From: Candidatus Dojkabacteria bacterium
GTDB lineage: Bacteria > Patescibacteriota > Dojkabacteria > SC72 > JAFGCJ01
Direction of reading: 5' to 3'
Assembly: GCA_016932785.1 (NCBI GenBank)
Contig: JAFGCJ010000002.1
Location: forward strand, 13,983 to 77,982
Length of the DNA stretch: 64,000 nucleotides
This document shows positions 917-45,959 of this stretch, one piece after another. Position 1 is the first letter of the stretch. The number at the start of each line of letters is the position of its first letter. The notes under the pieces are model-generated. The model saw nothing but the letters and a program-made list of their open reading frames with translations, was not told the DNA's origin and ran no database searches. The translations under genes were made by a program, and so were the position numbers.

Positions 917-2474
917 AGACTTGTTTTTTCGAGCGACTGCGAAGATTTTTTCCGTTGTAATTGGCTATTGATTCTGCTACTGTTTTGTTGTTAACGACAT
1001 CGTTGATTTCCTCAAAGGATGCCATTTTTATCTTTGATATGGTTTTGAATTTTTTGATTAATTGTTTTTTTCTTCTAGGGCCGACACCTGGTATCTCATC
1101 GAGCCAGGATTTGGTTTGTAGGTATCGTTTCCCCTTTCTGTGGTGTTTTATTGCAAAGCGATGGGCTTCATCACGTAATAATTGGAATATAAACGGATTT
1201 TGGAATTTAAGTTTAACGAATTTTCCGCTAGGTTTAACTGTCCAAAACTCATCGAGCTGCTTTTTTCCTGCTCTTTTTAATCTTTTTCCTTTTGATATAG
1301 CGAGAAGACCAACTCCCTCAGGTACGATATCTTTGACGGCAGAGAGCTGGCTTTTTGCCCCGTCAAGAAGGATAAGGTCCGGCTTTTGCAGTAGGCTTTC
1401 ATTCGACTCCTTGTTGTCGCTGTTGAGGTATTTGATTCTTCTTCTCAGCACTTCGTTCATCATTTTTGTGTCGTCTGCTTTGCCTTCAATGTCGATTTTG
1501 AATATCCGGTATTGAGAATTTTCGATATTTGGACCAATTGATACGGTCATTGAGCCGTAGGCTACTTCTCCTGCCAGGTTTGACATGTCGTAGCATTCCA
1601 CCCTCATTTTCTTTAACTTTTCATCGGGAATATTGAGCGACAGTTTGCTCACGGCCTCCTTAAGGCCTTCGACGTACCTGATATTTCGAATTTTGTGAAA
1701 TTCTGACTCTGTGTCTCCGAAATCAATATCAATTCTTTGGCTCAAATATCTTAGATCTGAAATTTTGTCCCTTAATTCTGCAGCTTTCTCGAATTTCTGT
1801 GTTTTGGAATATTTCGCCATCTTGTCCTCCAGCTCTCTGATTTGGTTTTTCTTCTTTCCTTCTAGTGTTTTAATAAGATTTTTGATGTTCTTCTTGTACT
1901 CCTGAGAGGTAATTAGGTTGTCGCAGGGGCCTGAGCATGTGCCAAGATGATAGTAAAGACATATCCTATTGTTTTTTACTTCATCAGGTTTTCTTAGGGG
2001 GTAGAATTTCAGCTTGCAGTCGGCAAATGGATATAATTTACGTAAATATTTAAGCATCCTTTTCATTGGACGGCCATCTGGATATGGACCAAAATATCGT
2101 CCGCTTTTTCCTGGGTCGCGAGTAGTTCTCACCCTGGGAAAAGGACTGTATGTGTCAATGTAAATCCATGCATATCTCTTGTTGTCTTTTAATGAAGCAT
2201 TATACTTGGGTTGGTATTTCTTTATTAAGTTAGCCTCGAGAATAAGTGCCTCAATCTCATTTTCTGTTTCTATCGTTTTTACGTCAAATATGTGAGGTAT
2301 CATCTGTTGGATCCATGGTCTATCTGTGTGATTTGATGTGAAATAGCTTTTCACCCTTGACCTTAGACGGAGAGCTTTTCCAACATATAGTATCTTTTCT
2401 CTCGAATCTATGAATTGGTAAATGCCTGTTTTATTTTGTATCTGCTCGATCTTTTGCTGAAGTTTTTTATCCAT
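903..2474 (-). CDS. uvrC: Excinuclease ABC subunit C (UvrC), short form
   Basis: N-terminal GIY-YIG motif (GIYQFIDSREKILYVGKALRLRSRV). C-terminal helix-hairpin-helix region (LDEIPGVGPRRKKQL). 523 aa is shorter than the typical ~600 aa. Confidence 0.85.
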   Translation of the reverse strand: MDKKLQQKIEQIQNKTGIYQFIDSREKILYVGKALRLRSRVKSYFTSNHTDRPWIQQMIPHIFDVKTIETENEIEALILEANLIKKYQPKYNASLKDNKRYAWIYIDTYSPFPRVRTTRDPGKSGRYFGPYPDGRPMKRMLKYLRKLYPFADCKLKFYPLRKPDEVKNNRICLYYHLGTCSGPCDNLITSQEYKKNIKNLIKTLEGKKKNQIRELEDKMAKYSKTQKFEKAAELRDKISDLRYLSQRIDIDFGDTESEFHKIRNIRYVEGLKEAVSKLSLNIPDEKLKKMRVECYDMSNLAGEVAYGSMTVSIGPNIENSQYRIFKIDIEGKADDTKMMNEVLRRRIKYLNSDNKESNESLLQKPDLILLDGAKSQLSAVKDIVPEGVGLLAISKGKRLKRAGKKQLDEFWTVKPSGKFVKLKFQNPFIFQLLRDEAHRFAIKHHRKGKRYLQTKSWLDEIPGVGPRRKKQLIKKFKTISKIKMASFEEINDVVNNKTVAESIANYNGKNLRSRSKKQVSSPR

Positions 2475-2562
2475 TTATACCCTAAAGTATAAATCTTTTT
2501 GGGGTTTTAATAAAACAATAATGAAAAAACTGATGTGCGATATTTTGGTGAAGTTTTTCAGT

Positions 2563-5500
2563 CTACTCTATTCTAAAAGGCTCAATTATCTCTTTTACCT
2601 CGTCTGTAAGCTCGATACCACGTTTAAGCTGCATTGTTTTTACGTCATCTCCGTCGGGAATGGATATCATTACGGGTGTATCGCCGGGGTTTTCTTTTAA
2701 GGCTTGCTTAAGCCTCTTTATATCATCTTTGTTAGCGTTCGTAGGTATTCTCAAACTAAGTCCATCAGAAGACTTTGTAGCTTTGTCTAGATCAATGACT
2801 CTTAGCGAATCACAGATAATGCTTCTCGTTCCATCGCGAACATTAACCTTTCCTATAAATATGGTCGGAGTGCTCTCTTCAAGATTTTTTGAAAATTTTT
2901 CATACGTACTGGGAAAAAGAATTACCTCAATCTCACTGGTCTGATCTTCTATGAGGAGAAAGGCCATACGTTTATTTTCTTTCTTTGTCGAAATAGCTTT
3001 TATATTGGTTATAAGCCCGCATGCTTGTACGTGTGCATTTGGTTTCATCTGTTTTATTTCAGAAATATCCTTGACACCTATTGCTGAAAGGTATGACTTA
3101 ATTCTTCCAAGGGGATGGGCGGTAATATACATACCTAGAAGTTCCTTTTCCCATTCGATTTTGTTTGTGTCTGTGGCTGGCTCAACCTGTGGAAGTGGTG
3201 TCGGAGTAATCTTATGAGTCTGGCCTTCCTCTTTGCCCATAGAAAATATGTCAATCTGACCCTCTGCTTCAGAATTTTGTCTCTTCTTATAAGTCTCATG
3301 CATGGATGGGAGAGCGGCAAGTAGGCTGTTTCTTTCTCCAAAGTTGTCCAGAGCTCCTACTTGAACCAGATAGCTTATGGTTTTCTGGTTAATTTTATTA
3401 AGAGGAATTCGATACAGGAAGTCATCAAAGTTCTTGTATGGTCCGTCTTTGTCTCGAATATTTATGATAGTTCTGACTGCTGATTCACCGATATTCTTGA
3501 TTGCCGCCAGGCCAAATCTAATGTTGTATTTCTCTTCAATGGAAAAGCCAGATTTGCTTTTGTTTACGTCCGGAGGAAGGATGTTTATCCCTTTTCTGTT
3601 ACACTCCGCAATTATAAGAGAAATTTTATCGAAATCGTCGATTTCAGACTTGAGTAGTGCTGCCATAAATTCCACAGGATAATGAGTCTTTAGGTAGGCC
3701 GTTTGAAAAACGACTAGAGCATAGGATGCTGCATGTGGTTTGTTGAAAGCATAGTTTGTAAATGGAATGAATAGTTCAAACAGTGCCTCGGCTTTCTTTT
3801 CTGAGAGTCCGTTTTCCTCGAATCTCTTTAGTAGGTCGTCCTTCATATCAAACAATATCTCGGGTTTCTTTTTACCGGTAAACTTCCTCGCTTTGTCGGC
3901 TTCTGGCCAGGTCATTCCCGCAAGTGCTACTGTTGTCATCATTATATCCTCTTGATAAACAAGGAGTCCGTATGTAAGTGAGAGAAAGTCCTTCATTCTT
4001 GGATCAATGAAAGTAACAGATTTTTTCCCGGATTTTCTGTCGGCATATTCTTGTTGAAACTGGTTTGGTCCTGGTCTTACAAGAGCTAGAGATGCTGAGA
4101 TATCAAATATTGATTCTGGTCTAAGAACTTTCGCAGTGTTTTTCATGGGACCTGTCTCTAGCTGGAAGACCCCAAGAGTATCCAGATCTTTTATCAATTT
4201 GTATGTTGCTTCGTCATCAAGAGGGAATTTTGTTGGGTCAATATCAATTCCTCTTTCTTCTTTAATGATTTTTACTGATTCTGAAATAGTATCTAGACCG
4301 GTAAGACCAAGAAAGTCAACCTTGAGAAGCTTTAATTCCTCGAGTGAGTCCATTTCGTATTGAGTGATCATTCTGCCGTCTTCGCCTAGTGTTTTATCCC
4401 AGATTACAGGGCAATAGTCGACTATTGGTCCTGGCGTGACCAGGATTCCACATGCATGTATTCCCTGGCTTTTGGCGACACCCTCGATTTTTTTTGCGGT
4501 ATCTATCAATTTCGCCGCGTCGGGGTCTTGCTTGGTTAGCTCCTTTAATTCTGGAACTTCTCTTAGTGCCCTATCGATATCTACTTTTGCAAGTCCCTGT
4601 CCAGATGGCGGAATCAATTTTGCTATCCTGTCTACATATGCCAGGGGAAGTCCCAGTACTCGTCCGGCATCTCTTATGGATCCTCTGGCCTGCATTCTTC
4701 CAAAGGTAACAATATGGGCTACCGATTCTTTGCCATATAAATCTATAGCGTAGTTAATAACCTCTTCTCTTCTTGAGCTTGCTACGTCGATGTCAATATC
4801 CGGTGCTGACGGCCTTCCCTTGTAAAGGAACCGTTCAAAAGGAACCTGGAAATCCAGAGGATTTGCTGTGACTATACCTAGTATGTAGGATACGAAACTT
4901 CCCGCCGCTGATCCTCGAGTTGTGAAGGGAATATTGTTGTTCTTGATCCAATCTGTGAAATCCATGTTCATTACTATGTAGCTTGAGTACCCCATCTCAG
5001 AGATTACTTCAAATTCGTACTCTGCCCTCTTCTTCTCGTCTTTTGTTAATTCTCTATTGATTACTTTAGGAGCCCGCTGTTTTATGAGGTCGTACAGATA
5101 TTTGTCGTAGTCTTTTTTGTATGAATCCGGTATTGGAGGCTCAGGAAAAACCCAATCCTCAAATCCCAAATCAAAGACCTCGCACATATCTGTGACTTTC
5201 TGGGTGTTTTCTATGGCCTCAGGAATGTCTTGGAATAGCTCTTCCATTTGTTCAGGACTTTTGAGGTAGAATTCGTCTGTTTCCCTTGTCAGCCGCTGTT
5301 CATCCTCAAGTCTTTTCCCGGTATTTATGCACATAAGAACCTCTTGTGCCAGGGCATCCTCTTCTTTTATATAATGAACGTCGCAGGTTGCTATTAGTGG
5401 AAGCTCGAGATCTTCTGCTACCTGGATAAGGCCTTTATTTGCAACTTCCTGATCTTTCATACCGTTTCTCTGGAGTTCAACATAGAATCTATCCTTCCCA

Positions 5501-5991
5501 AATAGCTCCTTGTACCACTGTGCAATGTTGTGAGCATCTTTCAAATCTCCGCCGAAAACCTTTTTAGATATTTCGCCTGTGAGACATCCGGATAGTGCAA
5601 TCAAGCCGTCTTTATGTTTTTCCAGAAGCTCCTTGTCGATTCTAGGTTTGTAATAGAAACCGTCGATGTGTGATTTGGAAACAAGTTTGATCAGGTTGTC
5701 GTAGCCTTTTCTGTTTTCTGCAATTAGTACAAGATGATGAGGCTTTTCGTCTAGCTTTGCAATTTTTTGTGTGTGTTTTCTTGGTGCAACATATACTTCA
5801 CAACCTATGATCGGTTTGATATCTTCCTTCTGGCATTCTTTATGAAATTTGTGAGCACCGTACATTACTCCGTGATCGGAGATGCCGAGAGATTGCATGC
5901 CCAGTTCTTTTGCTTGAGGAATTAGCTTTTTAATTTTTGGTAATCCATCGAGTAAAGAGAACTCAGTGTGTACGTGCAGGTGGGTAAACAT
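2563..5991 (-). CDS. dnaE: DNA polymerase III alpha subunit (DnaE)
   Basis: N-terminal PHP domain (MFTHLHVHTEFSLLDG...GISDHG). 1142 aa with polymerase core and an OB-fold-containing C-terminal region. Confidence 0.9.
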   Translation of the reverse strand: MFTHLHVHTEFSLLDGLPKIKKLIPQAKELGMQSLGISDHGVMYGAHKFHKECQKEDIKPIIGCEVYVAPRKHTQKIAKLDEKPHHLVLIAENRKGYDNLIKLVSKSHIDGFYYKPRIDKELLEKHKDGLIALSGCLTGEISKKVFGGDLKDAHNIAQWYKELFGKDRFYVELQRNGMKDQEVANKGLIQVAEDLELPLIATCDVHYIKEEDALAQEVLMCINTGKRLEDEQRLTRETDEFYLKSPEQMEELFQDIPEAIENTQKVTDMCEVFDLGFEDWVFPEPPIPDSYKKDYDKYLYDLIKQRAPKVINRELTKDEKKRAEYEFEVISEMGYSSYIVMNMDFTDWIKNNNIPFTTRGSAAGSFVSYILGIVTANPLDFQVPFERFLYKGRPSAPDIDIDVASSRREEVINYAIDLYGKESVAHIVTFGRMQARGSIRDAGRVLGLPLAYVDRIAKLIPPSGQGLAKVDIDRALREVPELKELTKQDPDAAKLIDTAKKIEGVAKSQGIHACGILVTPGPIVDYCPVIWDKTLGEDGRMITQYEMDSLEELKLLKVDFLGLTGLDTISESVKIIKEERGIDIDPTKFPLDDEATYKLIKDLDTLGVFQLETGPMKNTAKVLRPESIFDISASLALVRPGPNQFQQEYADRKSGKKSVTFIDPRMKDFLSLTYGLLVYQEDIMMTTVALAGMTWPEADKARKFTGKKKPEILFDMKDDLLKRFEENGLSEKKAEALFELFIPFTNYAFNKPHAASYALVVFQTAYLKTHYPVEFMAALLKSEIDDFDKISLIIAECNRKGINILPPDVNKSKSGFSIEEKYNIRFGLAAIKNIGESAVRTIINIRDKDGPYKNFDDFLYRIPLNKINQKTISYLVQVGALDNFGERNSLLAALPSMHETYKKRQNSEAEGQIDIFSMGKEEGQTHKITPTPLPQVEPATDTNKIEWEKELLGMYITAHPLGRIKSYLSAIGVKDISEIKQMKPNAHVQACGLITNIKAISTKKENKRMAFLLIEDQTSEIEVILFPSTYEKFSKNLEESTPTIFIGKVNVRDGTRSIICDSLRVIDLDKATKSSDGLSLRIPTNANKDDIKRLKQALKENPGDTPVMISIPDGDDVKTMQLKRGIELTDEVKEIIEPFRIE

Positions 5992-6180
5992 AGCAATATT
6001 CTACAGAAATTAAACTTTAATGAAAATTGTGTTGTAGAAATAGTGTTACTATGGGTATTTTTTGTGTAGATGTATGGTGGGTGTTTGAATAGGTTTGCAT
6101 ATTTAATAAAGACGTTATTAATAGTATAATCCTATAGTAATAAGATTCTACCTAAGTATCTTATATTTGTTTAGAAATTT

Positions 6181-6681
6181 TTGGGAAAGGAACAATCAGA
6201 ACAATCAAAAGATTTTAGTCCCGAAGAGGCAGACGAAGTGGAGGCACAGATGTTGGCGACAATGGGCAATACTGCTATGACGGAACAGCTTTGCGCTGAT
6301 TTCGGAGTGCTCTTTGGAACTGTAAATATCCCGGCTATCGGTATATATAAAAATTGTGTATATGTTAAGGGCTCGGAAAAAGGAAAAGGACATTTCGCAG
6401 CATTGACTAATTATGCTGATAACGGGGCTTCTGCCAGAGTTGCGTTTTTATTTCCAAGTGAAGATTCAAAAGGTCCGTACAGGCCATTTGATTTATTTGT
6501 TACAGCTGTATTAGCGGCTGGGGCTAAGCACGACGTGAAGTTGGCATTTGTTCGGGTTGGGGATGTTGTTGCCGGGTGTAAGGATGATCCCTTTGGTCAA
6601 GGGGGGCCAGTAGAATGCTGGAGAAATTTGGGATTTGATATGTCGCCTGATGGGGATTGGTTGGTTAAGGCTGTGAAATAG
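6181..6681 (+). CDS. Hypothetical protein (166 aa), TTG start, locally GC-richer
   Basis: ORF with non-ATG start. No recognisable motif. Codon usage is G/C-richer than neighbouring genes. Confidence 0.3.
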   Translation: MGKEQSEQSKDFSPEEADEVEAQMLATMGNTAMTEQLCADFGVLFGTVNIPAIGIYKNCVYVKGSEKGKGHFAALTNYADNGASARVAFLFPSEDSKGPYRPFDLFVTAVLAAGAKHDVKLAFVRVGDVVAGCKDDPFGQGGPVECWRNLGFDMSPDGDWLVKAVK

Positions 6682-29323: not shown

Positions 29324-29989
29324 ATGACTCCTAAAGACTCAACAGCCAGGTTCAGCAATTTCTCCCTAGAATATGAATATCTAAGCAGTGGTTGTAAATA
29401 CGTTGCAGGTATGGATGAAGTTGGACGGGGGTGTCTGGCAGGACCTGTTGTTGCCGCTGTTGCGGTTATTTCAAAAGAGGATCAGTATATTCCAGGAGTT
29501 TGGGACAGCAAAACCATGACCGCAAAGAGACGGGAGGATGTTTACGATCAGCTTCTGGATACCGTAGATGCCTATGGAATTGGTGAGGCATCCTGTGCTG
29601 AAATTGATGAATTAGGAATTGGTCCGGCATCGTCTCTTGCTATGCAGCGTGCCTACGATGTTCTTGATATTAAGCCGGATATTGTACTTATCGATGGTGA
29701 AAAAGTACAGGCTCCGAATTTGCACAGTCGGCATCTTAAGCAGGGTGACCGCAAGCATTTCATTATTTCCGTGTCATCTGTCATAGCTAAGGTCTATCGT
29801 GACCGAATGATGATCAAACTAAGTAAACAGTATAGTGGTTATGGTTTTGAGAAGAACGTTGGGTACGGGACGAAGGAGCATCGGTTGGCCCTGGAGTCGC
29901 AGGGAGTTTGTGAAATACATAGGAAAACGTTTTCCCCCGTGAAGGATATTATTTCTAAGGGGAAATTTTATGAGAAAGGTTCGGGATAG
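29324..29989 (+). CDS. rnhB: Ribonuclease HII
   Basis: VAGMDEVGRGCLAGPVVAAVAVI (DEVGRG catalytic motif). 221 aa. Confidence 0.8.
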   Translation: MTPKDSTARFSNFSLEYEYLSSGCKYVAGMDEVGRGCLAGPVVAAVAVISKEDQYIPGVWDSKTMTAKRREDVYDQLLDTVDAYGIGEASCAEIDELGIGPASSLAMQRAYDVLDIKPDIVLIDGEKVQAPNLHSRHLKQGDRKHFIISVSSVIAKVYRDRMMIKLSKQYSGYGFEKNVGYGTKEHRLALESQGVCEIHRKTFSPVKDIISKGKFYEKGSG

Positions 29990-30377
29990 CAGTTTGTGGG
30001 GTGTCGGTCTGCGGCCAGATAGGAAAACTCTCGGTAAAATGTCGGAATCGCTTGTCGCTGAAAGACTGGAGGCTAAAGGGTTCAAGGTCGTTGCTCGAAA
30101 CTATTCCTGCAGATTCGGAGAAATTGATATTGTAGCAGTAAAGGATGGTGTTATCTGGTTTGTTGAGGTAAGGTCGAGATGGATTGGTGCCGGAGGCAAC
30201 TTGGCAGTGAAGGCCGTTGAGACCGTAGGGGCGTTGAAGTTGCAAAGAATATTGAAAACAAGTGATTTTTTTATACAGGAGCGAGGTTTAAGCAATATAG
30301 ATAGAAATGTTTTAGTTGTTGAGGTAAACTGGTATAATCGCAGTCGCGTTAGAGTGAGAATGATACCGGTTTACTGA
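29970..30377 (+). CDS. YraN-family (UPF0102) PD-(D/E)xK endonuclease-like protein
   Basis: GEIDIVAVKDGVIWFVEVRSR matches the YraN core. The likely real start is the Met at about 30033 (MSESLVAERL). Confidence 0.6.
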   Translation: MRKVRDSSLWGVGLRPDRKTLGKMSESLVAERLEAKGFKVVARNYSCRFGEIDIVAVKDGVIWFVEVRSRWIGAGGNLAVKAVETVGALKLQRILKTSDFFIQERGLSNIDRNVLVVEVNWYNRSRVRVRMIPVY

Positions 30378-30407: not shown

Positions 30408-30483
30408 GGGGCGCTAGCTCATCCGGTAGAGCAACTGGCTTTTAACCAGTAGGTGCGGGGTTCGAGTCCCCGGCGCCTCACCA
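30408..30483 (+). tRNA. tRNA-Lys (anticodon UUU)
   Basis: Manual fold: acceptor GGGGCGC/GCGCCTC, D arm GCTC-ATCCGGTA-GAGC, anticodon stem ACTGG/CCAGT with loop CTTTTAA (anticodon TTT), T arm CGGGG-TTCGAGT-CCCCG, discriminator A, encoded CCA. Coordinates are +/-1 nt. Confidence 0.85.
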
Positions 30484-30518
30484 CTTTTTATCGAGTTTTT
30501 TGGATTTTTCTGCTGTTA

Positions 30519-31322
30519 ATGTTATCTAAATATGCAATAAATAAGCAAAAGGGGAATATTGGAGAGGCATTTGTACAGTTTTTCTTATCTAGATTTGCGC
30601 TTGTTCATAAGGTGGATGGTGGAAATGATCTTGGTAATGATTTCTTCTGTGAACTATTTTTGGAGGAATATCCTACGAACATACTATTTTATGTACAGGT
30701 AAAGCTTTGGTGCTCTGAGCCTAGGGTTAAAGAATCTACAAAAGATTATTGGAGAAAGGCTCAGATACCTGTGTATTTATTCTGGGTGAAATGTGCAGGT
30801 AAAGAATTCGATGATATTGTTTTGGACGATGCTTTAGATGAAGCTTCATGGGTAGTTAAATATAAAAGAATGACAGCTGAGTTGCACAAAGAAAAGGCTG
30901 AAGGATTTGAAGATTTTGATTTGTTGAAATTTAAGAGAGATTTAATGATTGATTATGCTAGGTCGATGTTTATACGTGGTTTCACCCCTGTTTTTGATGC
31001 GGGAATGTTTTTCACAGAAAAGGAGAGAAGTAATCTTGACCTGGCTAGATTTCAAAATCCCGCGAGGAGCCTCATAAAGGAAGATCAATACGTAGAGACA
31101 GTACTTGATGAAAGCTGGTCTCATTTTATCTCTGTAGCACATTTGTTACATAGAATGTACAAAGAACTTAAGAAAGAAGAATATTTGAAAGGTGCTGAAG
31201 ACTGCATTAATCTTGCCGAAACATTATATGGAATATCTAATGTCACAGATGTTGATCATGTCTTGGCCTATTTATGGAGCGTAAAGAAAGAAATACGTAA
31301 TTCACGAAATCAGTTAGGTTAA
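30519..31322 (+). CDS. DUF4365-type PD-(D/E)xK nuclease-fold protein
   Basis: GNIGEAFVQFFLSRFALVHKVDGGNDLGNDFFCELF...ILFYVQVK reproduces the DUF4365 pattern (iGE...D.GxD...E...hVQVK, a restriction-endonuclease-like D/E-K core). The ORF-track GTG start at 30453 would overlap the tRNA-Lys 3' end, so the internal Met at about 30519 is preferred. Confidence 0.5.
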   Translation: MLSKYAINKQKGNIGEAFVQFFLSRFALVHKVDGGNDLGNDFFCELFLEEYPTNILFYVQVKLWCSEPRVKESTKDYWRKAQIPVYLFWVKCAGKEFDDIVLDDALDEASWVVKYKRMTAELHKEKAEGFEDFDLLKFKRDLMIDYARSMFIRGFTPVFDAGMFFTEKERSNLDLARFQNPARSLIKEDQYVETVLDESWSHFISVAHLLHRMYKELKKEEYLKGAEDCINLAETLYGISNVTDVDHVLAYLWSVKKEIRNSRNQLG

Positions 31323-31477: not shown

Positions 31478-33049
31478 TTAATCCATATATTCTTTCAAAT
31501 ATTTTCTTAACCTCTTATCCACAACATACACATAAGTTCCACGAATGCCCCGTGTAAGCAATGTTTTGTAAATATTTTTAATGTAGCTTTCAAGCTCGTT
31601 CGGATCAGAAATAGCTCTTTTACCATTAAAATCAAGATATTTACTTTTGTCTATAACAATACTCTTTTTATCCTTGTCATATGAGATTTCCGGCCCAATA
31701 ATAACTCCAGCATAGTTAAGGTCATACCCCTGAATTGTATGGATGCAACCAACCTCATTTACGGCATTCTCTGAGTTGACCCAATCCTTTGTAACGCTGT
31801 TCCATCTTAACTTAACGTCGTCAATTTCTATATCGTAATCAATAGACTCATCTTTTTTGGTTTTCCATTCCCATGAGTACCCAGCTAATAGTCTTGAAAG
31901 TCCGATATTCTTGTCTTGTTCTTTTATGGCATCAACTAGTTCTCTTATATCGCCGAATAGCTTAAGTTCATATTCGTCGAATTTGACCTTCTCTTTCTGC
32001 TCGACATTGAGTATTCGTCTTATATATTCGATATAGTCCTGTCCGCCCCTCACTCTCATTTGGGAAATCAACGCGTATTCTTTCATCTTGTACTTTCTTA
32101 TATGGTGCTCCCTTATATCTGCTGGCTTAATGCTCTGATTTTTGTCGTAGAAAAGAACTTGATGTTTGGAGGAGTTAATAATCCAGTCTAGCTCAGTCCC
32201 CTCTTCTTTTTTGAGGCCTAAGGTTTTGTTTATCCTATCGAAGTCTCTGTAGTTAGTTAGGTTTACTCTTCTTTGTAATCTGTGCGCTTCATCAACAATT
32301 AATATGTCGTAATCGAATTTGATGACGTCGTTTGGTCCTATGACCATACCCGGATTTAATCCTTTTACTGATTTGAAGACTTTTTTTAGTGTTTTCCTTA
32401 GGGAAGTCATAGGAATTACCAAACCAATCCTGAGGTCTTGTGCCCAATCCTGTTCATATAGATATTTCATTAAGTATACCGCCACTATTGTCTTTCCGGT
32501 TCCTGGCTCTCCTGAAACAATACTGGTTTGGTGGCTGTCTTTTTTAATACTTTCCGTTATCTCCTGAACAACATTAAGCTGGTCTTCGCTAAGGCTTTTA
32601 TAGGGAGAATATTTAAACAAGTCACTATTTTCTATCTGAACAAGAGCTTGATTAGCCAGTTCTCTCTTTAGTAGTTCTTTCCATATAACTTCAAATTTTG
32701 CTTGATAACGTTCTCGGTCATAGTAGTCCGATTCTTTAACACCTGAATTACCGTTCTGGAGTAGATATTTGCCATCGCCGGACATGTATTTTATTAAGGA
32801 AGATTCAATGTCTAGAGTAGCCGATTTATTGTACTCGTCATCAGCAATTACATGTAAATTCTTCAGCCTTGCTCTTTCAGGATTTTCTATTTGTTGTTTT
32901 GCCCTATTATAAGCACTTACTGATTCTCCAACATATGCTTCTCTTCCATCTTCGATTATGTATACAATCGGCCAATTTAAGCCAAATCTGTAATCCTTAA
33001 TTTTCTGGATTGTGCTTGGAGTAAAACTGTATTTGGTTATCTCATACAT
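31478..33049 (-). CDS. GIY-YIG nuclease-like N-terminal domain fused to DUF2075 (Schlafen-helicase-like) P-loop NTPase
   Basis: N-terminal WPIVYIIEDGREAYVGESVSAYNRAKQ (GIY-YIG-like). Walker A IVSGEPGTGKT. Walker B/DEAH-like ILIVDEAHRL. The C-terminal region is typical of DUF2075 proteins. Confidence 0.6.
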   Translation of the reverse strand: MYEITKYSFTPSTIQKIKDYRFGLNWPIVYIIEDGREAYVGESVSAYNRAKQQIENPERARLKNLHVIADDEYNKSATLDIESSLIKYMSGDGKYLLQNGNSGVKESDYYDRERYQAKFEVIWKELLKRELANQALVQIENSDLFKYSPYKSLSEDQLNVVQEITESIKKDSHQTSIVSGEPGTGKTIVAVYLMKYLYEQDWAQDLRIGLVIPMTSLRKTLKKVFKSVKGLNPGMVIGPNDVIKFDYDILIVDEAHRLQRRVNLTNYRDFDRINKTLGLKKEEGTELDWIINSSKHQVLFYDKNQSIKPADIREHHIRKYKMKEYALISQMRVRGGQDYIEYIRRILNVEQKEKVKFDEYELKLFGDIRELVDAIKEQDKNIGLSRLLAGYSWEWKTKKDESIDYDIEIDDVKLRWNSVTKDWVNSENAVNEVGCIHTIQGYDLNYAGVIIGPEISYDKDKKSIVIDKSKYLDFNGKRAISDPNELESYIKNIYKTLLTRGIRGTYVYVVDKRLRKYLKEYMD

Positions 33050-33066: not shown

Positions 33067-33423
33067 TTAGAGTTTTGTATATTTTTTGCTTGTTCCCTTA
33101 GCCTTCTCTACCGGGTATTTTTTGCTGTTTTGTTCGATTTTTTTTTGAACGATTTCGTCAATGTTAACATCGAGTGTTTCTGCTAGCAGTGCGATATATA
33201 TTAATATGTCGGCTAATTCCTCGATCACTTCTTTCTTGTCATACTTGGAGGTCCATTGAAAGCATTCTAGTAATTCTCCTGCCTCTATTGATATTGATTT
33301 GGCAAGATTTTCTTCTGAATGGAACTGTTTCCAATCTCTATCATCTCTAAATTTAATGAGTTTCTCTATGATTTCTCTTTTCATTAAAATTTCATTAAGA
33401 ATTGTTTTTTTTAATTCTAGCAT
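33067..33423 (-). CDS. MazG-like nucleoside triphosphate pyrophosphohydrolase
   Basis: EENLAKSISIEAGELLECFQW...EELADILIYIALLAETLDVNIDEIV carries the EExxE/D metal-binding helices of all-alpha NTP-PPase (MazG/HisE) proteins. 118 aa. Tail-to-head with the DUF2075 gene, 17 nt gap. Confidence 0.65.
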   Translation of the reverse strand: MLELKKTILNEILMKREIIEKLIKFRDDRDWKQFHSEENLAKSISIEAGELLECFQWTSKYDKKEVIEELADILIYIALLAETLDVNIDEIVQKKIEQNSKKYPVEKAKGTSKKYTKL

Positions 33424-35316: not shown

Positions 35317-36513
35317 GTGAGTAAATACAATTATAACCACAGAAATCGTGGATACAATGACTATGCAAAGCGAAACGGAAGACGTCGTGGGGGGCGTAAT
35401 AGCTTTCATGGGAGTAAGATTGATCCCAAAAAATATGTCTCAAGTGCTGAGGCTGGACCATCGTGCTCTATTTATCAGGATGACTGCAAATTTGAAGATT
35501 TCAACGTTGCTTCGGTGATCCAGTCGAATATCAGAGCTAAGAATTTCAGCCAACCGACAAAGATACAAGCCCAGGCAATTCCATATGTACTTTCCGGTAA
35601 GGATATTTTGGGATTAGCGGGAACTGGATCTGGTAAAACTGCGGCTTTTCTCGTTCCGATGATTGATAAGGCTCTCAAAGATCGTGGTCAGAAGATCTTG
35701 ATTGTCACTCCAACAAGAGAGCTTGCCGCCCAGATTAGAGATGAATTTGTTACTTTCTCAAAAGGAACGAATCTCAGGTCGGCCGTTGTTATCGGAGGTG
35801 CAAGTATGGGGAAACAAATTTCGGTATTGAAGCAAAACCCTCAGTTTGTTATTGCTACTCCTGGAAGATTGAAAGATCTTTCTCAAAGGGGGGTGATTCA
35901 TTTTGATGTATTTAACAATATTGTACTTGATGAGGTGGATAGGATGCTCGATATGGGTTTTGTCCATGAGATAAAGCAAGTTATTTCAAAATTGAGCCAA
36001 AACAAGCAGTCGATGTTTTTTTCAGCTACTATGAATCCTAAGATCGAGGAAATTGCCAGATCGTTACTTAGGGATCCTGTGAAAATTCAGGTTGAGAGGC
36101 TTTCTTTAAAGAGAAACGTGGAACAGAATGTCGTTAAAGTTAGACCAGAAGAGAAAATTGAGAAGCTCCATGATCTGCTGAATGGCGAAGATTTTCACAA
36201 AGTTCTGATCTTTTCGAGGACTAAATATGGCTCTGATAAACTTTCAAAGACGCTTTTAAAAAGAGGCTTTTGTGTAGATTCGATACATGGTGGCAAAACA
36301 CAGTCAAGAAGAGAAAGAGTAATACGTAAGTTTCGTCAGGATGAGATTAAGATTCTCGTTGCAACAGATGTTGCTGCAAGAGGATTGGATATTGACGATA
36401 TTACCCATGTTATAAACTACGACGAGCCGAATTGTTATGATGACTATATTCACAGGATCGGCCGTACTGGCAGAGCCGGGAAAAAAGGTAACGCGCTCAC
36501 ATTTGTTGGGTAG
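35317..36513 (+). CDS. DEAD-box ATP-dependent RNA helicase (motif II variant DEVD)
   Basis: Q motif, Walker A AGTGSGKT, PTRELA, VLDEVDRMLDMGF, SAT, HRIGRTGRAG. R/G-rich N-terminus. Confidence 0.8.
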   Translation: MSKYNYNHRNRGYNDYAKRNGRRRGGRNSFHGSKIDPKKYVSSAEAGPSCSIYQDDCKFEDFNVASVIQSNIRAKNFSQPTKIQAQAIPYVLSGKDILGLAGTGSGKTAAFLVPMIDKALKDRGQKILIVTPTRELAAQIRDEFVTFSKGTNLRSAVVIGGASMGKQISVLKQNPQFVIATPGRLKDLSQRGVIHFDVFNNIVLDEVDRMLDMGFVHEIKQVISKLSQNKQSMFFSATMNPKIEEIARSLLRDPVKIQVERLSLKRNVEQNVVKVRPEEKIEKLHDLLNGEDFHKVLIFSRTKYGSDKLSKTLLKRGFCVDSIHGGKTQSRRERVIRKFRQDEIKILVATDVAARGLDIDDITHVINYDEPNCYDDYIHRIGRTGRAGKKGNALTFVG

Positions 36514-36875: not shown

Positions 36876-37697
36876 CTATTCAAACTCTCTCTCATAGGGT
36901 CTATTTTGCCTGATCCAGACTTCGGCCTCTCCGTCTCTGGTCAGGGGATCCTCGTTTAGAACAGCTTCAGCTGTAAGAGCGAGGTAATCCCTTACTCCCT
37001 CCGGCAGTACTTCACCTTCTGTTCGACAATCAAATTCCACTGAAAAATCTGCGTCAGCATCAAGAGTTGTAATGACTTCTGTTTTAATGCCGTCAATAGG
37101 AATTCCCAGTATTTTAGAAAATCTTGTTGCTACCTCTGTAGTGACGCGTTGAAATTGTTCGGTTTCTTTCTGTGATTCAGTCATATGTTCTGGACTAGAA
37201 ATTTCTCCGCTTAATAAATGAGCATTTGGAGAGAGAAAAAGTCTGATCTGGGGATTTCTTACTGCTGAGCCCCATCTACGCATTTCATCTTCTGTGAGTG
37301 TAGGAACTGGGTCTGGTGCGTCTTTTCTCCTTAGCATCCAAGCGGTTTCATCCCATACTCTAATGACGGTTCCTAGACCTGGGATTCCAGATTCCTTACA
37401 TAATTCCTGTATTTGTGTCCCAGCTGCGCTGATTTGTTCTTCGTTGGGACGAAAATCAACTCCTTCTTCATAAGTTCCGACACCCGCGGTTAGTTCTATT
37501 GCAAGAACTGTTCCGTCAGTTGCCTCTTTAGCTCCTTTCCCGACTCGTACCTCTCGATCATCTGGATCTAGCGTGTCTATTCCTAGCTCACGATGAGTTA
37601 TATCCAGGGCTTGGTCGCAGAGGGCCCGTGCCTGTTGTGGAGTTACCCCTTTAGGGAGTTGTGAATCTGGTAGTTGAAGATCAGCTATAGGTGACAT
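36876..37697 (-). CDS. Hypothetical protein (273 aa), locally GC-rich (about 47%)
   Basis: No recognisable motif. Codon usage is distinctly G/C-richer than surrounding genes. Its 5' end is duplicated as the pseudogene at 34980-35125. Confidence 0.45.
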   Translation of the reverse strand: MSPIADLQLPDSQLPKGVTPQQARALCDQALDITHRELGIDTLDPDDREVRVGKGAKEATDGTVLAIELTAGVGTYEEGVDFRPNEEQISAAGTQIQELCKESGIPGLGTVIRVWDETAWMLRRKDAPDPVPTLTEDEMRRWGSAVRNPQIRLFLSPNAHLLSGEISSPEHMTESQKETEQFQRVTTEVATRFSKILGIPIDGIKTEVITTLDADADFSVEFDCRTEGEVLPEGVRDYLALTAEAVLNEDPLTRDGEAEVWIRQNRPYEREFE

Positions 37698-39567: not shown

Positions 39568-40104
39568 GTGGAGGAAAAAGCTATGAAGAAATTGAAAATT
39601 GCGGGTTTGTTTTTTTTGATCCTTGCCGTGGCACTGGCATGTGCGCCTACCGGCGGTGGAGCAGAAGTTCCACCTACCGAGACGCCTGCACCGACTTTGT
39701 CTCCCACTCAGGCTCCGACATTGGGGCCACCTGCGCCCACAAAGGGGCCAGAGATTCAGACTCAGGAGGCAGAGAAACCGGTCGAGACCCCAGAAATTCC
39801 AGGCTATATGCAGACAATAGAGGCTGGGCATGATTTCATAATAAGCCGTAAGTGTCCTCCAGGCAGCGATTCAACTGCCATAGAGCTGTATATCAACTTG
39901 GACGGGTCTGGTCCCAAAGGGGCCAGTATCCGTGGGGTTGATGGTCTCCTCCAAGAAGGAGATGAGATCATCCGTGTCGTTAAATGTAACGATGAGGGAG
40001 AGGGGGTTCCATACCGATTCGGAATGATAATCGAAATTCGGTACAACTCCGTGGACGTCTGGGTATATACTCCCCCTCTACCTGTTCAAGGTTCAGACCT
40101 GTAA
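39568..40104 (+). CDS. Lipoprotein (lipobox LAC), GC-rich (about 55%)
   Basis: MKKLKIAGLFFLILAVALACAPTGG gives a signal peptidase II lipobox. P/T-rich linker followed by a globular domain. Confidence 0.5.
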   Translation: MEEKAMKKLKIAGLFFLILAVALACAPTGGGAEVPPTETPAPTLSPTQAPTLGPPAPTKGPEIQTQEAEKPVETPEIPGYMQTIEAGHDFIISRKCPPGSDSTAIELYINLDGSGPKGASIRGVDGLLQEGDEIIRVVKCNDEGEGVPYRFGMIIEIRYNSVDVWVYTPPLPVQGSDL

Positions 40105-40372: not shown

Positions 40373-41779
40373 TTGATTTCAAAAATGCAAGACTTGAAAG
40401 ATAAAATTGCAGACTTTTTAGAGAACGTTCCAATTTCGACAGAGCAGCCAGTTTCTTCTTCATCAATAGGCAAGGATTTGAAAGGTGAGACACTCCATTC
40501 TGTGATTGTCTTTTTACAGTTATTTAACTGTGTAGAAATTAAATCCAAAGGAAAGAAAGCGGGAGAATGGAAAGTTAAGTCGGTATCGCCTACCGCCGAT
40601 TATTTTCTCAGAAGTCTTGCGAGATACATCAGAAAAGAAAATTCCTTGATCAGCTCGTGGGCCAAACTTGGGACAACAGACGAGAAGGGTTCAATATTTG
40701 ATTGGGGGACCAAATATCTTGCTGAAATGGAGAAGCGGCGGACAGTGAAATTTAGTGATAAGTATCCAACGAGGCTGGTTTCAGTTTCACAAGCTATTAT
40801 AAAGGCCCGTGTAAAAGGATATGAGGAACCTCTTTTTCTTGTCCAGCTTGATGAAAAGATAGATCAGTACCAGTTCATTGGAGGCAGGAAAATTGGTTCT
40901 GATAAGGATCTTAAGGCAACTATTGAGAGGGAACTAAGTGAGGAGTTGTATAAGAATGACATGGTAAAAAAACATAATTACACGCTGGAACCTTTAGCTG
41001 AGAATATGAGGCATTATGAGATTTCTCCGACATTCGGAGCCTTTACTGAATATACCTTTTCTATCTATCAGATCATGTTTGCTGAGGAGGATATCAAGCT
41101 TGGCGGAGGAGACATATGGGTCTCTGCAAAAGAATTAGAAGCGGAGCAATCTTATGACGGAAAGCATATTAGGTTAACCTTCGAGCCGGAGAAAGTTATA
41201 GGAAAGACATATGATGAACTCCCCTTGTCCACTGTTCGGGTACAGCCGGAGTTTGCTAGAAAAAAGGCTGCCTCAAAAGATTCCACAGCGAGTGCCCAGA
41301 AGATACAGGATCTTATTTCTGAAGGTGAAAGTACTAATCTTGAATTTAAGGCTACAATTAGGTGGGATAAGAGGAGAAATCAGGTCAACAAAGATTTAGA
41401 GAAGGTTGTTGTCAAAGAAATATCGGCTTTTCTAAATTCCAAAGGAGGAACTCTTTTAATAGGTGTTGACGATGATGGGACTGTAATCGGATTAGGTGAT
41501 GATATCAAGACCCTGCGAAAACAGAATCTGGATGGTTATATGCAGGCTGTAGTTAGTCTTATTTCGGATAACATAGGTGTTCAATATTGCTCTAATGTGG
41601 ACGTTTCTTTTGAAAAAATAAATGGTGACGACATTTGCGTTCTTTCTATACGTAAAGCCTCGGGACCTGTGTTTGTGAAGAATAATGATAAAAAAGAGTT
41701 CTATGTTAGAAGGTCAAATACCTCTAGGCTTCTCGATAGTGAGGAAACTTATAACTATATCCTGCATACTTGGGGCTAG
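40373..41779 (+). CDS. Fusion protein: N-terminal region with degenerate Nudix-like box plus C-terminal AlbA_2 (Schlafen-box-like) putative DNA-binding domain
   Basis: C-terminus ESTNLEFKATIRW...VVKEISAFLNSKGGTLLIGVDDDGTVIGL matches the AlbA_2 signature (E..LEFK ... AFaNt.GG.lliGV.d.G.i.Gl). Mid-region YQFIGGRKIGSDKDLKATIERELSEELY resembles the Nudix box (GG...REL.EE) with the catalytic Glu positions substituted. Confidence 0.5.
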   Translation: MISKMQDLKDKIADFLENVPISTEQPVSSSSIGKDLKGETLHSVIVFLQLFNCVEIKSKGKKAGEWKVKSVSPTADYFLRSLARYIRKENSLISSWAKLGTTDEKGSIFDWGTKYLAEMEKRRTVKFSDKYPTRLVSVSQAIIKARVKGYEEPLFLVQLDEKIDQYQFIGGRKIGSDKDLKATIERELSEELYKNDMVKKHNYTLEPLAENMRHYEISPTFGAFTEYTFSIYQIMFAEEDIKLGGGDIWVSAKELEAEQSYDGKHIRLTFEPEKVIGKTYDELPLSTVRVQPEFARKKAASKDSTASAQKIQDLISEGESTNLEFKATIRWDKRRNQVNKDLEKVVVKEISAFLNSKGGTLLIGVDDDGTVIGLGDDIKTLRKQNLDGYMQAVVSLISDNIGVQYCSNVDVSFEKINGDDICVLSIRKASGPVFVKNNDKKEFYVRRSNTSRLLDSEETYNYILHTWG

Positions 41780-41821
41780 GTCTTTACTGCAAGTTCTAAG
41801 TATCCTATAATGGTTAATTAA

Positions 41822-42349
41822 ATGATATCAGGAAATGCTTCAAAACCAAAATTAAGAATACTTATTGTTGATGATGATAAGGGCTGGAGAGAAATTCTTT
41901 CTGATGTAGTCAGTAGAAAATTTTTAGAGTCAGAGTCCGCTGATAAGTACGAACTTGAATTAGTAGTCATCGAGCCTGGTGAAGGCGAAGGTAAACATAT
42001 GGAAGGACGAAAATATATAGAAAGAGCTAGAGATGTTTTGCGTGCAGGCGGTATTCATGGTGCTCTTATTGACTGGAATGTGGGTGATCAAGGAGATATC
42101 TTTATTCCTAAAGAAGATAAGGTCTATACTGGAGAGTTATTGAAGGAGGTTTATGGTATGCGTATCCCTTTGATAGCTGTAACCGGGAGTGGTAAATCGT
42201 TTACTAATTTTGAGGCTCAGTTAATGGAGCAAGGTATAGGACTTGATTCAATAAGAAAGAATACTGTTAGTACATCGGATCCTATTTTCCAGCAATTTAT
42301 TGAGGGAGCCATTTCGCTTTGTGATCAAGAGCTTAAGGGGGGGTATTGA
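41822..42349 (+). CDS. Stand-alone CheY-like receiver (REC) domain protein
   Basis: LRILIVDDDKGWREIL...HGALIDWNVGD...LIAVTGSGK: receiver-fold acidic pocket and phospho-acceptor Asp candidate (LIDW). No output domain. Confidence 0.45.
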   Translation: MISGNASKPKLRILIVDDDKGWREILSDVVSRKFLESESADKYELELVVIEPGEGEGKHMEGRKYIERARDVLRAGGIHGALIDWNVGDQGDIFIPKEDKVYTGELLKEVYGMRIPLIAVTGSGKSFTNFEAQLMEQGIGLDSIRKNTVSTSDPIFQQFIEGAISLCDQELKGGY

Positions 42350-42435: not shown

Positions 42436-42816
42436 TTATTCTTTATTTTTAAATTCCAGGGCTAAGGAGTTTATGCAATATCGGTGTCCTGTCGGCTCTG
42501 GGCCGTCGTCGAATTTGTGACCGAGGTGAGCTCCGCATTTTGAGCAGGTTACTTCTGTTCTATTCATGCTGTAGGAAGTGTCGGGCTGTTCTGTTACGGT
42601 GGCATTGTTTATTGGCTGAAAGAAACTTGGCCATCCGGATTTAGAGTCGTATTTGGCCTCAGACGAAAAAAGTTGCTGACCGCAGTTTACACAGCTATAT
42701 GTCCCCTTTTGGAAATTTTTATAATATTTTCCGCTTCCTGGTGGTTCAGTTCCTTTCAGAAAACAAATGTTGTACTGTTCGTCAGTTAGTTTGGGATTTG
42801 TCTTTCTCAGCAGAAT
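42436..42816 (-). CDS. msrB: Peptide methionine sulfoxide reductase MsrB (not in the ORF track; no canonical start codon)
   Basis: Manual minus-strand translation: ...LTDEQYNICFLKGTEPPGSGKYYKNFQKGTYSCVNCGQQLFSSEAKYDSKSGWPSFFQPINNATVTEQPDTSYSMNRTEVTCSKCGAHLGHKFDDGPEPTGHRYCINSLALEFKNKE*. Contains the CxxC...CxxC zinc motif, GWPSF, HLGH and RYCINS. The only in-frame ATG gives ~50 aa. Upstream to the in-frame stop there are only ATT/CTG/ATA codons. Confidence 0.6.
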   Translation of the reverse strand: MLLRKTNPKLTDEQYNICFLKGTEPPGSGKYYKNFQKGTYSCVNCGQQLFSSEAKYDSKSGWPSFFQPINNATVTEQPDTSYSMNRTEVTCSKCGAHLGHKFDDGPEPTGHRYCINSLALEFKNKE

Positions 42817-42961
42817 TGCTTGAAAAGTTATTTACCAATATTATTTGTTCATTTGTTGGGGGGTTATTGAATTCTTTCTTGTCCATAGTTACCGGATAGT
42901 AAGATGATTTTATCTATTGTAGAACTTTTATAAAAATAATTGAAGGATCTGTGCAGTAATA

Positions 42962-45320: not shown

Positions 45321-45959
45321 CTAGATCCTTCCGCCGCATTCCGGACAAAACTTCGTATCAGCTTCAATCTCTTTTCCACACTTGGGGCACTTAATAGTCG
45401 AAGACAATTTCTCACCACATTCTCCGCAGAATTTCGCGTGAGCCTCTATTGTTGCACCGCATTTGGGACAAGTCGCTACTTTAGCGTCGTCCCAGTCTTT
45501 TTCTGATAGATGTTTGTCTTTTTTTGCCATTCTTGCGTGTGCGAATGCCTCTTCCTTTGAATGTTGCGCTTGGGCGGCAGCCATCTCCTCCCCTAGTTCG
45601 GGTGCGCATTGTTTGCATAAACCCCTGTCCTCATTCCAGCAGACTTCTTTGCAAACCCACGTCCCACATCTTTTACACTGTGCAAATTTAGGACTTATTT
45701 CTTGTACAGCCTTCTTGAGTGCCTTGTCGTGCTGGGGTCCTGCGGCCATCCTGTGAATATCGTCTGATGTTGATGCTAAGTTTGAAGCTGTTCCACCAAG
45801 GAAACCTCCTACTATACCTAGTGCACCAGAGACCACACCTGTTGCCGATTTTTGAAATGTACTCATATAACCATTTCCGCACCTTTCACATATGAATTTG
45901 AATTGATAGCCTTTGTCGGTGGATAGGTCTTGGTAGTTATCTGTAAAGGGAATGTCCAT
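45321..45959 (-). CDS. Multi-zinc-ribbon protein
   Basis: Six or more CxxC pairs (CERCG; CKRCG...CKQC; CPKCG...CGECG; CPKCG...CPECG). Central hydrophobic/Gly-rich segment. Confidence 0.45.
   Translation of the reverse strand: MDIPFTDNYQDLSTDKGYQFKFICERCGNGYMSTFQKSATGVVSGALGIVGGFLGGTASNLASTSDDIHRMAAGPQHDKALKKAVQEISPKFAQCKRCGTWVCKEVCWNEDRGLCKQCAPELGEEMAAAQAQHSKEEAFAHARMAKKDKHLSEKDWDDAKVATCPKCGATIEAHAKFCGECGEKLSSTIKCPKCGKEIEADTKFCPECGGRI

Follow-up and report, generated by a model that had tools for sequence, protein, structure and literature searches.

A Schlafen-type protein and a receiver at one locus

This study concerns two adjacent genes in a 64,000-nucleotide (64 kb) stretch of Candidatus Dojkabacteria DNA (candidate phyla radiation (CPR)/Patescibacteria; contig JAFGCJ010000002.1, 598 kb), hereafter the window. 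The two open reading frames (ORFs) lie on the same strand and are termed ORF A and ORF B. ORF A (40373..41779, + strand) encodes 468 amino acids (aa) from a TTG codon, arranged as a putative winged-helix-like domain, a helical linker, a Nudix fold and an AlbA_2/Schlafen domain; in the NCBI model (P0001) the start is the ATG at 40385, giving 464 aa. ORF B (41822..42349, +) encodes a divergent, single-domain CheY-like receiver of 175 aa. The NCBI entries are 100% identical to both proteins and are annotated as 'ATP-binding protein' for ORF A and 'hypothetical protein JW710_00925' for ORF B. Both ORFs, first described in an earlier note made from the sequence alone, were found at the coordinates proposed there, with a spacing of 42 nt (41780..41821, +). 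The gap contains no terminator-like site. A promoter-like TTTACT-17-TATAAT is present within it at 41783-41811, and the regional count of promoter-like sites is not above chance. Downstream of ORF B, an apparent gap of ~600 nt is filled by a convergent msrB gene (SelR, E=1.8e-49; 42436-42831, - strand), and a degraded third gene of the unit in this stretch was thereby ruled out. As msrB comes next, the unit is made up of ORF A and ORF B only and ends at ORF B.

The C-terminal part of ORF A (aa 319-454; 41327..41734, +) matches the Pfam family PF04326 (SLFN_AlbA_2) with E=3.2e-21 and a score of 76.5 bits, above the curated cut-off of 25.3, and covers profile positions 1-117 of 118. The AlbA_2 domain named in the earlier note is thus confirmed. 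Rat Slfn13 (5yd0, E=1.6e-6), SLFN14 and SLFN11 align with it over their catalytic lobe, and 'GESTNLEFK...ISAFLNSKGGTLLIGVDDDG' of the window protein is placed over 'SESASIEFK...ISAFANTQGGYLLFGVDDES'. In this alignment E319-S-T-N-L-E324-F-K326 (41327..41350, +) takes the place of the Schlafen catalytic E-x4-E/D-x-K motif, while G364-V-D366-D367-D368-G (41462..41479, +) lies over the mammalian Schlafen GVDD, which holds the third acidic catalytic residue. The same pattern, E319-x4-E324-x-K326, matches the E17/D22/K24 triad of CbCash, which is essential for cA4-activated tRNA cleavage by this CRISPR-associated Schlafen (Cash), a ligand-activated prokaryotic tRNase (Weickert, Liu & Strecker 2026, PMC13462974). 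As E-x4-E-[FY]-K is kept in all 16 AlbA_2 relatives checked and in 20 of 21 AlbA_2-fused representatives of the family described below, the AlbA_2 domain of ORF A is predicted to be a competent nuclease. Its relatives (31-50% identity) are found beside a DUF262/GmrSD-like region (in proteins of ~706 aa), a receiver (P0015), bPH (P0017), dCache (P0044) and HsdM (P0045). Since such close relatives adjoin very different domains, AlbA_2 appears as an output module with swappable inputs; the slot upstream of it is taken by recognised sensor or receiver domains in relatives and by the Nudix module here.

The N-terminal 300 aa of ORF A gave no sequence match in Pfam, NCBIfam or the PDB, and the Pfam NUDIX profile (PF00293) did not match the window protein itself at E<=1. 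The same profile is matched by 28 of 66 aligned family relatives, at best with E=3.6e-8. Structure prediction of the module with AlphaFold, using the 66-member family alignment, gave a model with a pLDDT of 93.6 and a pTM of 0.88. Foldseek retrieved 134 PDB matches for this model at E<=1e-3; all 50 that were listed are Nudix proteins, with a TM-score on the target of ~0.6, and include YfaO, BdRppH, E. coli RppH, Ap4A hydrolases, MutT1, NadQ (7q92/7q93) and AraR (5bs6). In a viral structure library 44 matches were obtained, which cover the Nudix core only and are mostly annotated as Nudix. Hence, the Nudix assignment of the earlier note is upheld for aa 134-275 (40772..41197, +) by the fold together with the PF00293 matches of the relatives. 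A weak match of HetR to the Nudix region (E=0.12) was rejected as chance. In the predicted model, residues 1-70 (40373..40582, +) form three helices and a beta-hairpin according to DSSP, a topology that suggests a winged-helix-like domain; a 25-sequence profile of aa 1-130 found no significant match in the PDB. The two domains are connected by a family-specific helical linker (aa 73-126; 40589..40750, +) with the near-invariant residues S81, W96 (in SNWER), G112, E120 and R123. L156, S218, G222, Y227, W249, E254 and S286 are likewise near-invariant in the family.

For ORF B the Pfam Response_reg profile (PF00072) gave no match at E<=1, and a 173-aa paralogue from a related locus (L001, see below) reached E=0.027, which is below the cut-off. 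A profile of the three ORF B sequences matched CheY in the PDB with E=2.7e-4, placing 'ILIVDD' and 'DWNVG' over 'VVDD' and 'DWNMP' of CheY, and hhalign against CheY, Spo0F, PhoB and the receiver of P0015 gave 97.1% with E=5.7e-11 over 83 columns. A canonical receiver HMM matched ORF B at E=7.5e-4 and detected no other receiver among the ORFs of the window. By hhalign, the acidic pair D17-D18 (41870..41875, +) corresponds to CheY D12/D13, and D84 in DWNVG (42071..42073, +), which also lies over DWNMP in the CheY profile match, is the predicted phospho-acceptor equivalent to CheY D57. T121 (42182..42184, +) corresponds to CheY T87 and is Ser in both L001 paralogues. The receiver proposed in the earlier note is therefore supported by fold homology and by these aligned residues; for the conserved Lys there is a candidate, K146 (42257..42259, +), which is invariant in the three homologues, lies outside the region aligned by hhalign and may be the equivalent of CheY K109. 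ORF B also carries an insertion of ~20 aa between beta2 and alpha2 and a short C-terminal tail. Besides itself, no ORF B homologue was found in the indexed database, and a scan of metagenomes for relatives returned only a generic tandem-receiver regulator. Generally, as the direct scans with Pfam, NCBIfam and PADLOC gave no Nudix or receiver match for the window proteins, the Nudix and receiver calls rest on family profiles, structure prediction and profile-profile comparison.

The Nudix box and the family of the N-terminal module

The Nudix box of ORF A reads GG-x5-D177-x8-R186-E187-L-S-E190-E191-L (aa 170-192; 40880..40948, +). Compared with the consensus GX5EX7REUXEEXGU, the REUxEE part is kept, while the first Glu is replaced by Asp (D177), the spacer is longer by one residue and the final Gly is a Tyr. 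REUxEE is invariant in the three closest homologues. The earlier note had argued from replaced catalytic glutamates for a degenerate box and a purely ligand-binding role. This is incorrect for the window protein, which retains R186, E187, E190 and E191, and holds for the AlbA_2-fused branch found in operons with RelA/SpoT homologues, where the box has become RLLxKEL. Counted over the best 149 representatives of the family, an intact RE..EE occurs in 113 of the 128 non-fused members but in just 1 of the 21 AlbA_2-fused ones. In the HMM alignment of the box, the fused members from RelA/SpoT-homologue operons read RLLKKEL, RLLQKEL, RLLNKEL, RLVSREL and GQLSWEL; intact boxes are seen in the window protein (RELSEEL) and P0002 (RELREEL), the two whose genes are followed by a receiver gene, and in the non-fused members, and P0048 (REIGEEL) and P0053 (KEIEEEL) have an intact or almost intact one.

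A profile search with the module found at least 447 cluster representatives at E<=1e-3, 324 of them at E<=1e-10. Judged by its distribution among these proteins, the N-terminal module is a discrete mobile unit that defines an unnamed family. Among the best 149 representatives, 116 are standalone proteins (roughly 260-340 aa), 21 carry a C-terminal AlbA_2 domain and 12 have other extensions, such as an N-terminal protein kinase (P0092, P0108), PRTase-CE (P0134) or EAD7 (P0074). P0134 (L008-L010), in which PRTase-CE precedes the module, is a protein of 691 aa encoded by a solitary gene amid housekeeping genes, and in one family alignment one member carries TIR_2 and another ApeA_NTD1. According to Kaur et al. 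2020 (PMC7159879), EAD7 serves as an adaptor for recruiting effectors, and the substrates of Nudix and Macro domains in conflict systems are ADPr or NAD+. An indexed homologue search with the 66-member alignment returned 6 matches only, being swamped by accessory domains, and a search of genome contigs for relatives with one family alignment found none. A scan of named genomes with a degenerate pattern yielded 39 true members, mostly from Anaerolineae/Chloroflexota and Actinomycetes, all of them standalone; their neighbourhoods showed lineage synteny only, with no RelA/SpoT homologue, receiver or AlbA_2 partner. At another locus (L004, 1677-6796), the gene of P0196 (499 aa) is preceded by an HTH_3 gene and followed by genes for a 146-aa NUDIX protein, a radical-SAM protein and an adenosine deaminase, which could be a nucleotide-modifying cluster.

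Five AlbA_2-fused relatives, from four loci, lie in operons whose last gene encodes a divergent RelA/SpoT homologue, and the Nudix box is degenerate in all five. At L013, L014 and L015 the next gene after the fused one, on the same strand, encodes a protein of 617-763 aa, and at L011 two tandem fused paralogues are followed by the gene of a 783-aa protein; the distance between fused gene and RelA/SpoT homologue ranges from a one-base overlap to 94 nt (RelA/SpoT-homologue-linked module at L011 6407-8758, L013 3218-5230, L014 6481-8334 and L015 5908-8199). The four downstream proteins are mutually homologous (E between 3e-37 and 3e-4), and their joint profile matches Rel/RelA structures (8acu, E=1.3e-9), the match beginning at the end of the pseudo-hydrolase domain and extending into that of the synthetase. 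The hydrolase motif 'DRLHN' is apparently lost in these proteins and the synthetase motif 'EVQLTT' is kept; none has a significant Pfam match. The RelA/SpoT-homologue neighbour and the degenerate box in five fused relatives tie the module to nucleotide-alarmone chemistry and a sensor role, and its fold is a further link to nucleotide chemistry. The window contains no RelA/SpoT-homologue partner gene, and a test for an ORF B-like receiver inside these partner proteins found none. At L011 the two tandem Nudix-AlbA_2 paralogues (455 and 468 aa; 2048-6407) directly follow a DEAD-box helicase gene. A DEAD-box helicase gene is also present in the window (35317-36513, +), ~4 kb upstream of ORF A, a likeness that may be coincidence.

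Conservation of the pair, comparison with known systems and surroundings

The only close relative of ORF A is P0002 (53% identity), and at its locus, L001, the pair recurs with the receiver duplicated. The gene of the ORF A homologue is followed there, with gaps of 8 and 11 nt, by two ORF B paralogues in tandem, one of 197 aa (33% identity) and one of 173 aa (26% identity), and the pair persists with flanking genes that differ from those of the window. Independent support for a coupling of receivers to this AlbA_2 clade comes from P0015 (L016, GCA_027331455.1), a fusion of a receiver and an AlbA_2 domain that is 43% identical to that of the window. The operon at L016 (406-6844 on contig DAHWUE010000001.1) encodes a 1269-aa multi-GAF histidine kinase (HATPase_c, E=3e-16), two receivers, the receiver-AlbA_2 fusion and a TIR-receiver protein, and represents a two-component pathway with Schlafen-type and TIR outputs.

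The functionally nearest comparison for ORF A is Cash, which cleaves tRNA once activated by a nucleotide ligand. Both proteins combine a nucleotide-binding sensor, in ORF A a putative one, with a Schlafen/AlbA_2 nuclease domain, and the E-x4-[D/E]-x-K pattern is common to both. However, the sensor of Cash is Csx15, a CARF/SAVED-like Rossmann fold that binds cA4 from type III CRISPR systems, while the sensor position of ORF A is taken by the winged-helix-like and Nudix parts. No Csx15/CARF-like domain was detected in ORF A, whose non-Schlafen part has the Nudix fold, and lacking such a domain it is not a member of Cash. The Schlafen domain is N-terminal in CbCash and C-terminal in ORF A, which in addition is accompanied by a receiver. 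No CRISPR genes were noticed nearby; the listed Pfam matches of the window include no cas family, and CRISPR association was not searched for systematically. Nudix is not mentioned in the survey of seven further prokaryotic Schlafen clusters given in the Cash study (PMC13462974).

The mammalian Schlafens (rSlfn13 5yd0, SLFN11, SLFN14) share the ExxxxEFK and GVDD motifs of the catalytic lobe with ORF A, but identity is low and the match spans ~60-70 residues only; instead of a bilobed core ORF A has a single AlbA_2 domain, and the SWADL and helicase domains are missing. A Nudix fold and a winged-helix-type domain are combined in one protein also in NrtR, NadQ and Bacteroides AraR, where they serve in metabolite sensing. 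In these regulators the Nudix domain is N-terminal and the winged helix C-terminal, whereas the order is reversed in ORF A (winged-helix-like aa 1-70, Nudix aa 134-275), which moreover keeps REUxEE and adds the helical linker with its SNWER and ME..R motifs and a C-terminal nuclease domain. P0015 likewise couples a receiver to the same Schlafen clade and has standalone receivers in its operon; it differs by carrying the receiver and AlbA_2 in one protein, by having a multi-GAF histidine kinase as neighbour and by lacking a Nudix module, and ORF B is not specifically similar to the P0015 receiver. With CheY and Spo0F, ORF B shares the receiver fold signature, the acidic pair, the phospho-acceptor Asp, the Thr and a candidate Lys, but it stays below Pfam detection, carries the ~20-aa insertion after beta2 and has a divergent alpha4-beta5 region without the usual K-P. 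Taken together, ORF A is a bona fide AlbA_2 member and belongs by fold to the Nudix superfamily, with a variant box, and ORF B is a divergent receiver. Neither a Nudix-AlbA_2 fusion nor a Nudix/RelA-SpoT/Schlafen module was described in the literature searched, which is not proof of absence, and nothing relevant turned up on toxSAS with Nudix or on PRTase-CE. The combination of a Nudix-Schlafen protein with a receiver partner thus looks like a design without earlier description in that literature.

The surroundings of the pair are ordinary, with genes for an inositol monophosphatase, an alpha/beta hydrolase, a VIT1 protein and a ribose-5-phosphate isomerase and an unremarkable GC content. PHROGs gave nothing specific for the pair, and no mobile-element genes or GC anomaly were found around it. 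Directly upstream of ORF A (39568-40104, +), a 178-aa protein with a lipoprotein-like signal peptide and a Pro/Thr-rich linker is encoded, which like a 273-aa acidic protein at 36876-37697 (-) has no Pfam match. On the other side, a 212-aa protein (45321-45959, -) carries two C-terminal double zinc ribbons (DZR, E=4e-13) and a weak Prok-RING_2 match (E=5e-4). The msrB frame at 42436-42831 (-) encodes a complete MsrB/SelR domain (profile positions 1-115 of 116) without an ATG, GTG or TTG start. It opens with ATA ACT TTT CAA GCA ATT CTG CTG, preceded in frame by ATG AAC AAA and then TAA TAT TGG TAA, and an ordinary ORF listing overlooks the gene; a non-canonical start (ATA/ATT/CTG), a disrupted 5' end or recoding are possible.

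About 8 kb from the pair lies a DUF2075 gene (31478-33049, -), which the earlier note had mentioned as the other Schlafen-related module of the window. The gene itself is well supported (SLFN-g3_helicase, E=2.3e-66). No evidence was found for a tie to ORF A and ORF B, and this part was dropped, as the helicase gene is on the opposite strand, is separated by housekeeping genes and has a neighbour of its own, a 118-aa MazG-like nucleotide pyrophosphohydrolase (33067-33423, -; E=1.6e-19) encoded 17 nt before it on the same strand. With these two, a nucleotide pyrophosphatase stands next to a Schlafen-associated module for the second time in the window. Beside them are a weak DUF4365 match (30453-31322, E=8e-4) and a UPF0102/NERD-like nuclease gene (29970-30377).

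Proposed function and competing explanations

The most economical reading of the locus is a regulated Schlafen-type RNase: ORF A would be an RNase controlled in cis by its Nudix module and in trans by the receiver ORF B. We put the probability of this reading at roughly 40%. The sequence data establish the domain identities, the retained motifs, the recurrence of the pair and the associations seen in relatives; the RNase activity, the nature of the ligand, the sense of the regulation and the contact between the two proteins are inferred. By analogy with SLFN11/13/14 and bacterial Cash, the C-terminal AlbA_2 domain would act as a metal-dependent RNase on tRNA or other structured RNA. The winged-helix-like and Nudix module, as regulator in cis, would bind a pyrophosphate-containing nucleotide and, because the REUxEE residues are intact, probably also hydrolyse it. 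The RNase would then be gated by the bound ligand and reset once the ligand is hydrolysed, comparable to self-limiting CARF/ring-nuclease effectors. In self-limiting CARF effectors of the Csm6 type, the sensor binds a nucleotide signal, activates the fused RNase and degrades the signal; as their folds are unrelated to ORF A, the analogy is conceptual only. ORF B could be phosphorylated by an unlinked kinase or by a small phospho-donor and modulate ORF A by direct contact. The biological role would likely be a shut-down of translation on stress or infection. The wider frame of the earlier note, a nucleotide-sensing signalling unit, remains reasonable, since the domain calls survive, the pair recurs in L001 and a receiver is coupled to AlbA_2 in P0015. 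Its argument from a degenerate box fell away, no evidence connects the DUF2075 helicase to the pair, and no cognate histidine kinase was found in the 64 kb.

Several observations weigh against this reading. The Nudix box of the window branch looks catalytic rather than sensor-like and would fit an enzymatic role equally well as gating, and the EAD7 fusions in the family suggest that the Nudix module can itself be an effector. As the ORF B family comprises three known members, the conservation of the pair rests on two loci, which may be mere syntenic relatives. A full-length AlphaFold model of ORF A, calculated from three sequences, reached a pLDDT of 48 and was discarded, and thus does not contribute to the active-site geometry of AlbA_2. 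No kinase core was found in the 64 kb with a rough EnvZ probe. A defence role is unsupported by the context: PADLOC gave no significant match, only a weak one to a '2TM effector' model (E=0.026), mobile-element genes were not detected, and housekeeping genes of ordinary GC content surround the pair.

The intact RE..EE residues would also suit an RNA-decay enzyme, in which an RppH- or NudC-like Nudix domain acts on RNA 5' ends as pyrophosphohydrolase or decapping enzyme and the Schlafen domain cuts the same RNA. ORF A would then be a 5'-end-dependent RNase with a housekeeping function in a reduced CPR genome, and ORF B a regulator only loosely coupled to it. BdRppH, E. coli RppH and Ap4A hydrolases are among the top structural matches, and the surroundings are of the housekeeping type, with a DEAD-box helicase gene 4 kb upstream as well as directly before the tandem genes of L011. 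However, Foldseek matches at 12-20% identity cannot tell Nudix substrate classes apart, the recurrent RelA/SpoT-homologue neighbour points to free nucleotides instead of RNA ends, and the loss of the catalytic glutamates in most AlbA_2-fused relatives is hard to fit with an obligatory enzymatic first step; we regard such an enzyme as unlikely. The structural matches include NadQ (7q92/7q93) and AraR (5bs6) as well, which would agree with a transcription factor of the NrtR/NadQ/AraR type that binds DNA with the winged helix, senses a metabolite with the Nudix fold, uses AlbA_2 for nucleic acid binding and controls the downstream gene. This gene is always co-directional and close, be it the receiver here or the RelA/SpoT homologue elsewhere, 116 of the best 149 representatives are standalone, without an attached effector, and the N-terminal topology is winged-helix-like. 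Yet this topology comes from the model only, with no PDB match for the aa 1-130 profile, the domain order is opposite to that of NrtR, and the box is intact in 113 of 128 non-fused members, unlike in typical NrtR sensors. Fusions to TIR, kinase, PRTase-CE and EAD7 would be atypical, and retention of the Schlafen motif in 20 of 21 fusions is unexplained if AlbA_2 only binds. A transcription factor therefore seems distinctly improbable.

The order of a large nuclease gene and a small gene, the small one duplicated in L001 and the large one in L011, resembles a toxin-antitoxin or abortive-infection pair, with a Schlafen RNase as toxin, ORF B as antitoxin or inhibitor that is released on infection or stress, and the Nudix domain as accessory enzyme depleting nucleotides or destroying a phage signal. 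Prokaryotic Schlafens act in defence (PMC13462974), the AlbA_2 clade is attached to GmrSD-like (DUF262) and HsdM proteins, and TIR, EAD7 and PRTase-CE, to which the family is fused, are conflict-system domains. On the other hand, PADLOC and PHROGs gave nothing specific, mobile-element genes and a GC anomaly are missing nearby, and the neighbour in the other fused relatives is a RelA/SpoT homologue of 617-783 aa and not a small antitoxin-like protein. The phospho-acceptor pocket of ORF B is also complete, which a mere stoichiometric inhibitor would not need, and we give this explanation only a small chance. A coincidence of neighbours, with ORF A an enzyme in its own right and ORF B an unrelated CheY-like orphan that is adjacent through the shared ancestry of two close genomes, would agree with the occurrence of the pair at two loci only, the promoter-like site in the gap and the lack of a receiver neighbour in other fused relatives. 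It is very unlikely, given that the pair is kept at L001 despite different flanks and with gaps of 8 and 11 nt, and that a phosphorelay operon holds an independent receiver-AlbA_2 fusion.

Beyond the regulated Schlafen-type RNase at this locus, the module may represent a hitherto unrecognised nucleotide-alarmone sensor or 'timer' domain, one through which CPR bacteria gate tRNases of the Schlafen type. The dead Nudix domain of the branch with RelA/SpoT homologues would read the product of the co-operonic homologue, while the window's branch would use an active Nudix domain and a phospho-receiver instead. We consider this generalisation doubtful at present. If true, tRNA cleavage would stand under the direct control of the stringent response or of two-component signalling, and bacteria would have their own equivalent of the stress-activated Schlafen RNases, with a sensor fold, Nudix, not known in such a role.

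Prokaryotic Schlafens have only recently been shown to be ligand-activated tRNases, in the case of Cash. With a Nudix-fold module and a receiver protein, the locus adds two new candidate inputs to a Schlafen domain that can be put to the test, and exposes an unnamed family of at least 447 clusters with fusions to Schlafen, TIR, kinase, PRTase-CE and EAD7. If the link to RelA/SpoT homologues and receivers holds, a Nudix fold would have shifted from enzyme to sensor inside one family (113 of 128 versus 1 of 21 boxes intact), and alarmone or phosphorelay signalling would be joined to RNA cleavage in CPR bacteria, whose regulatory biology is almost unknown.

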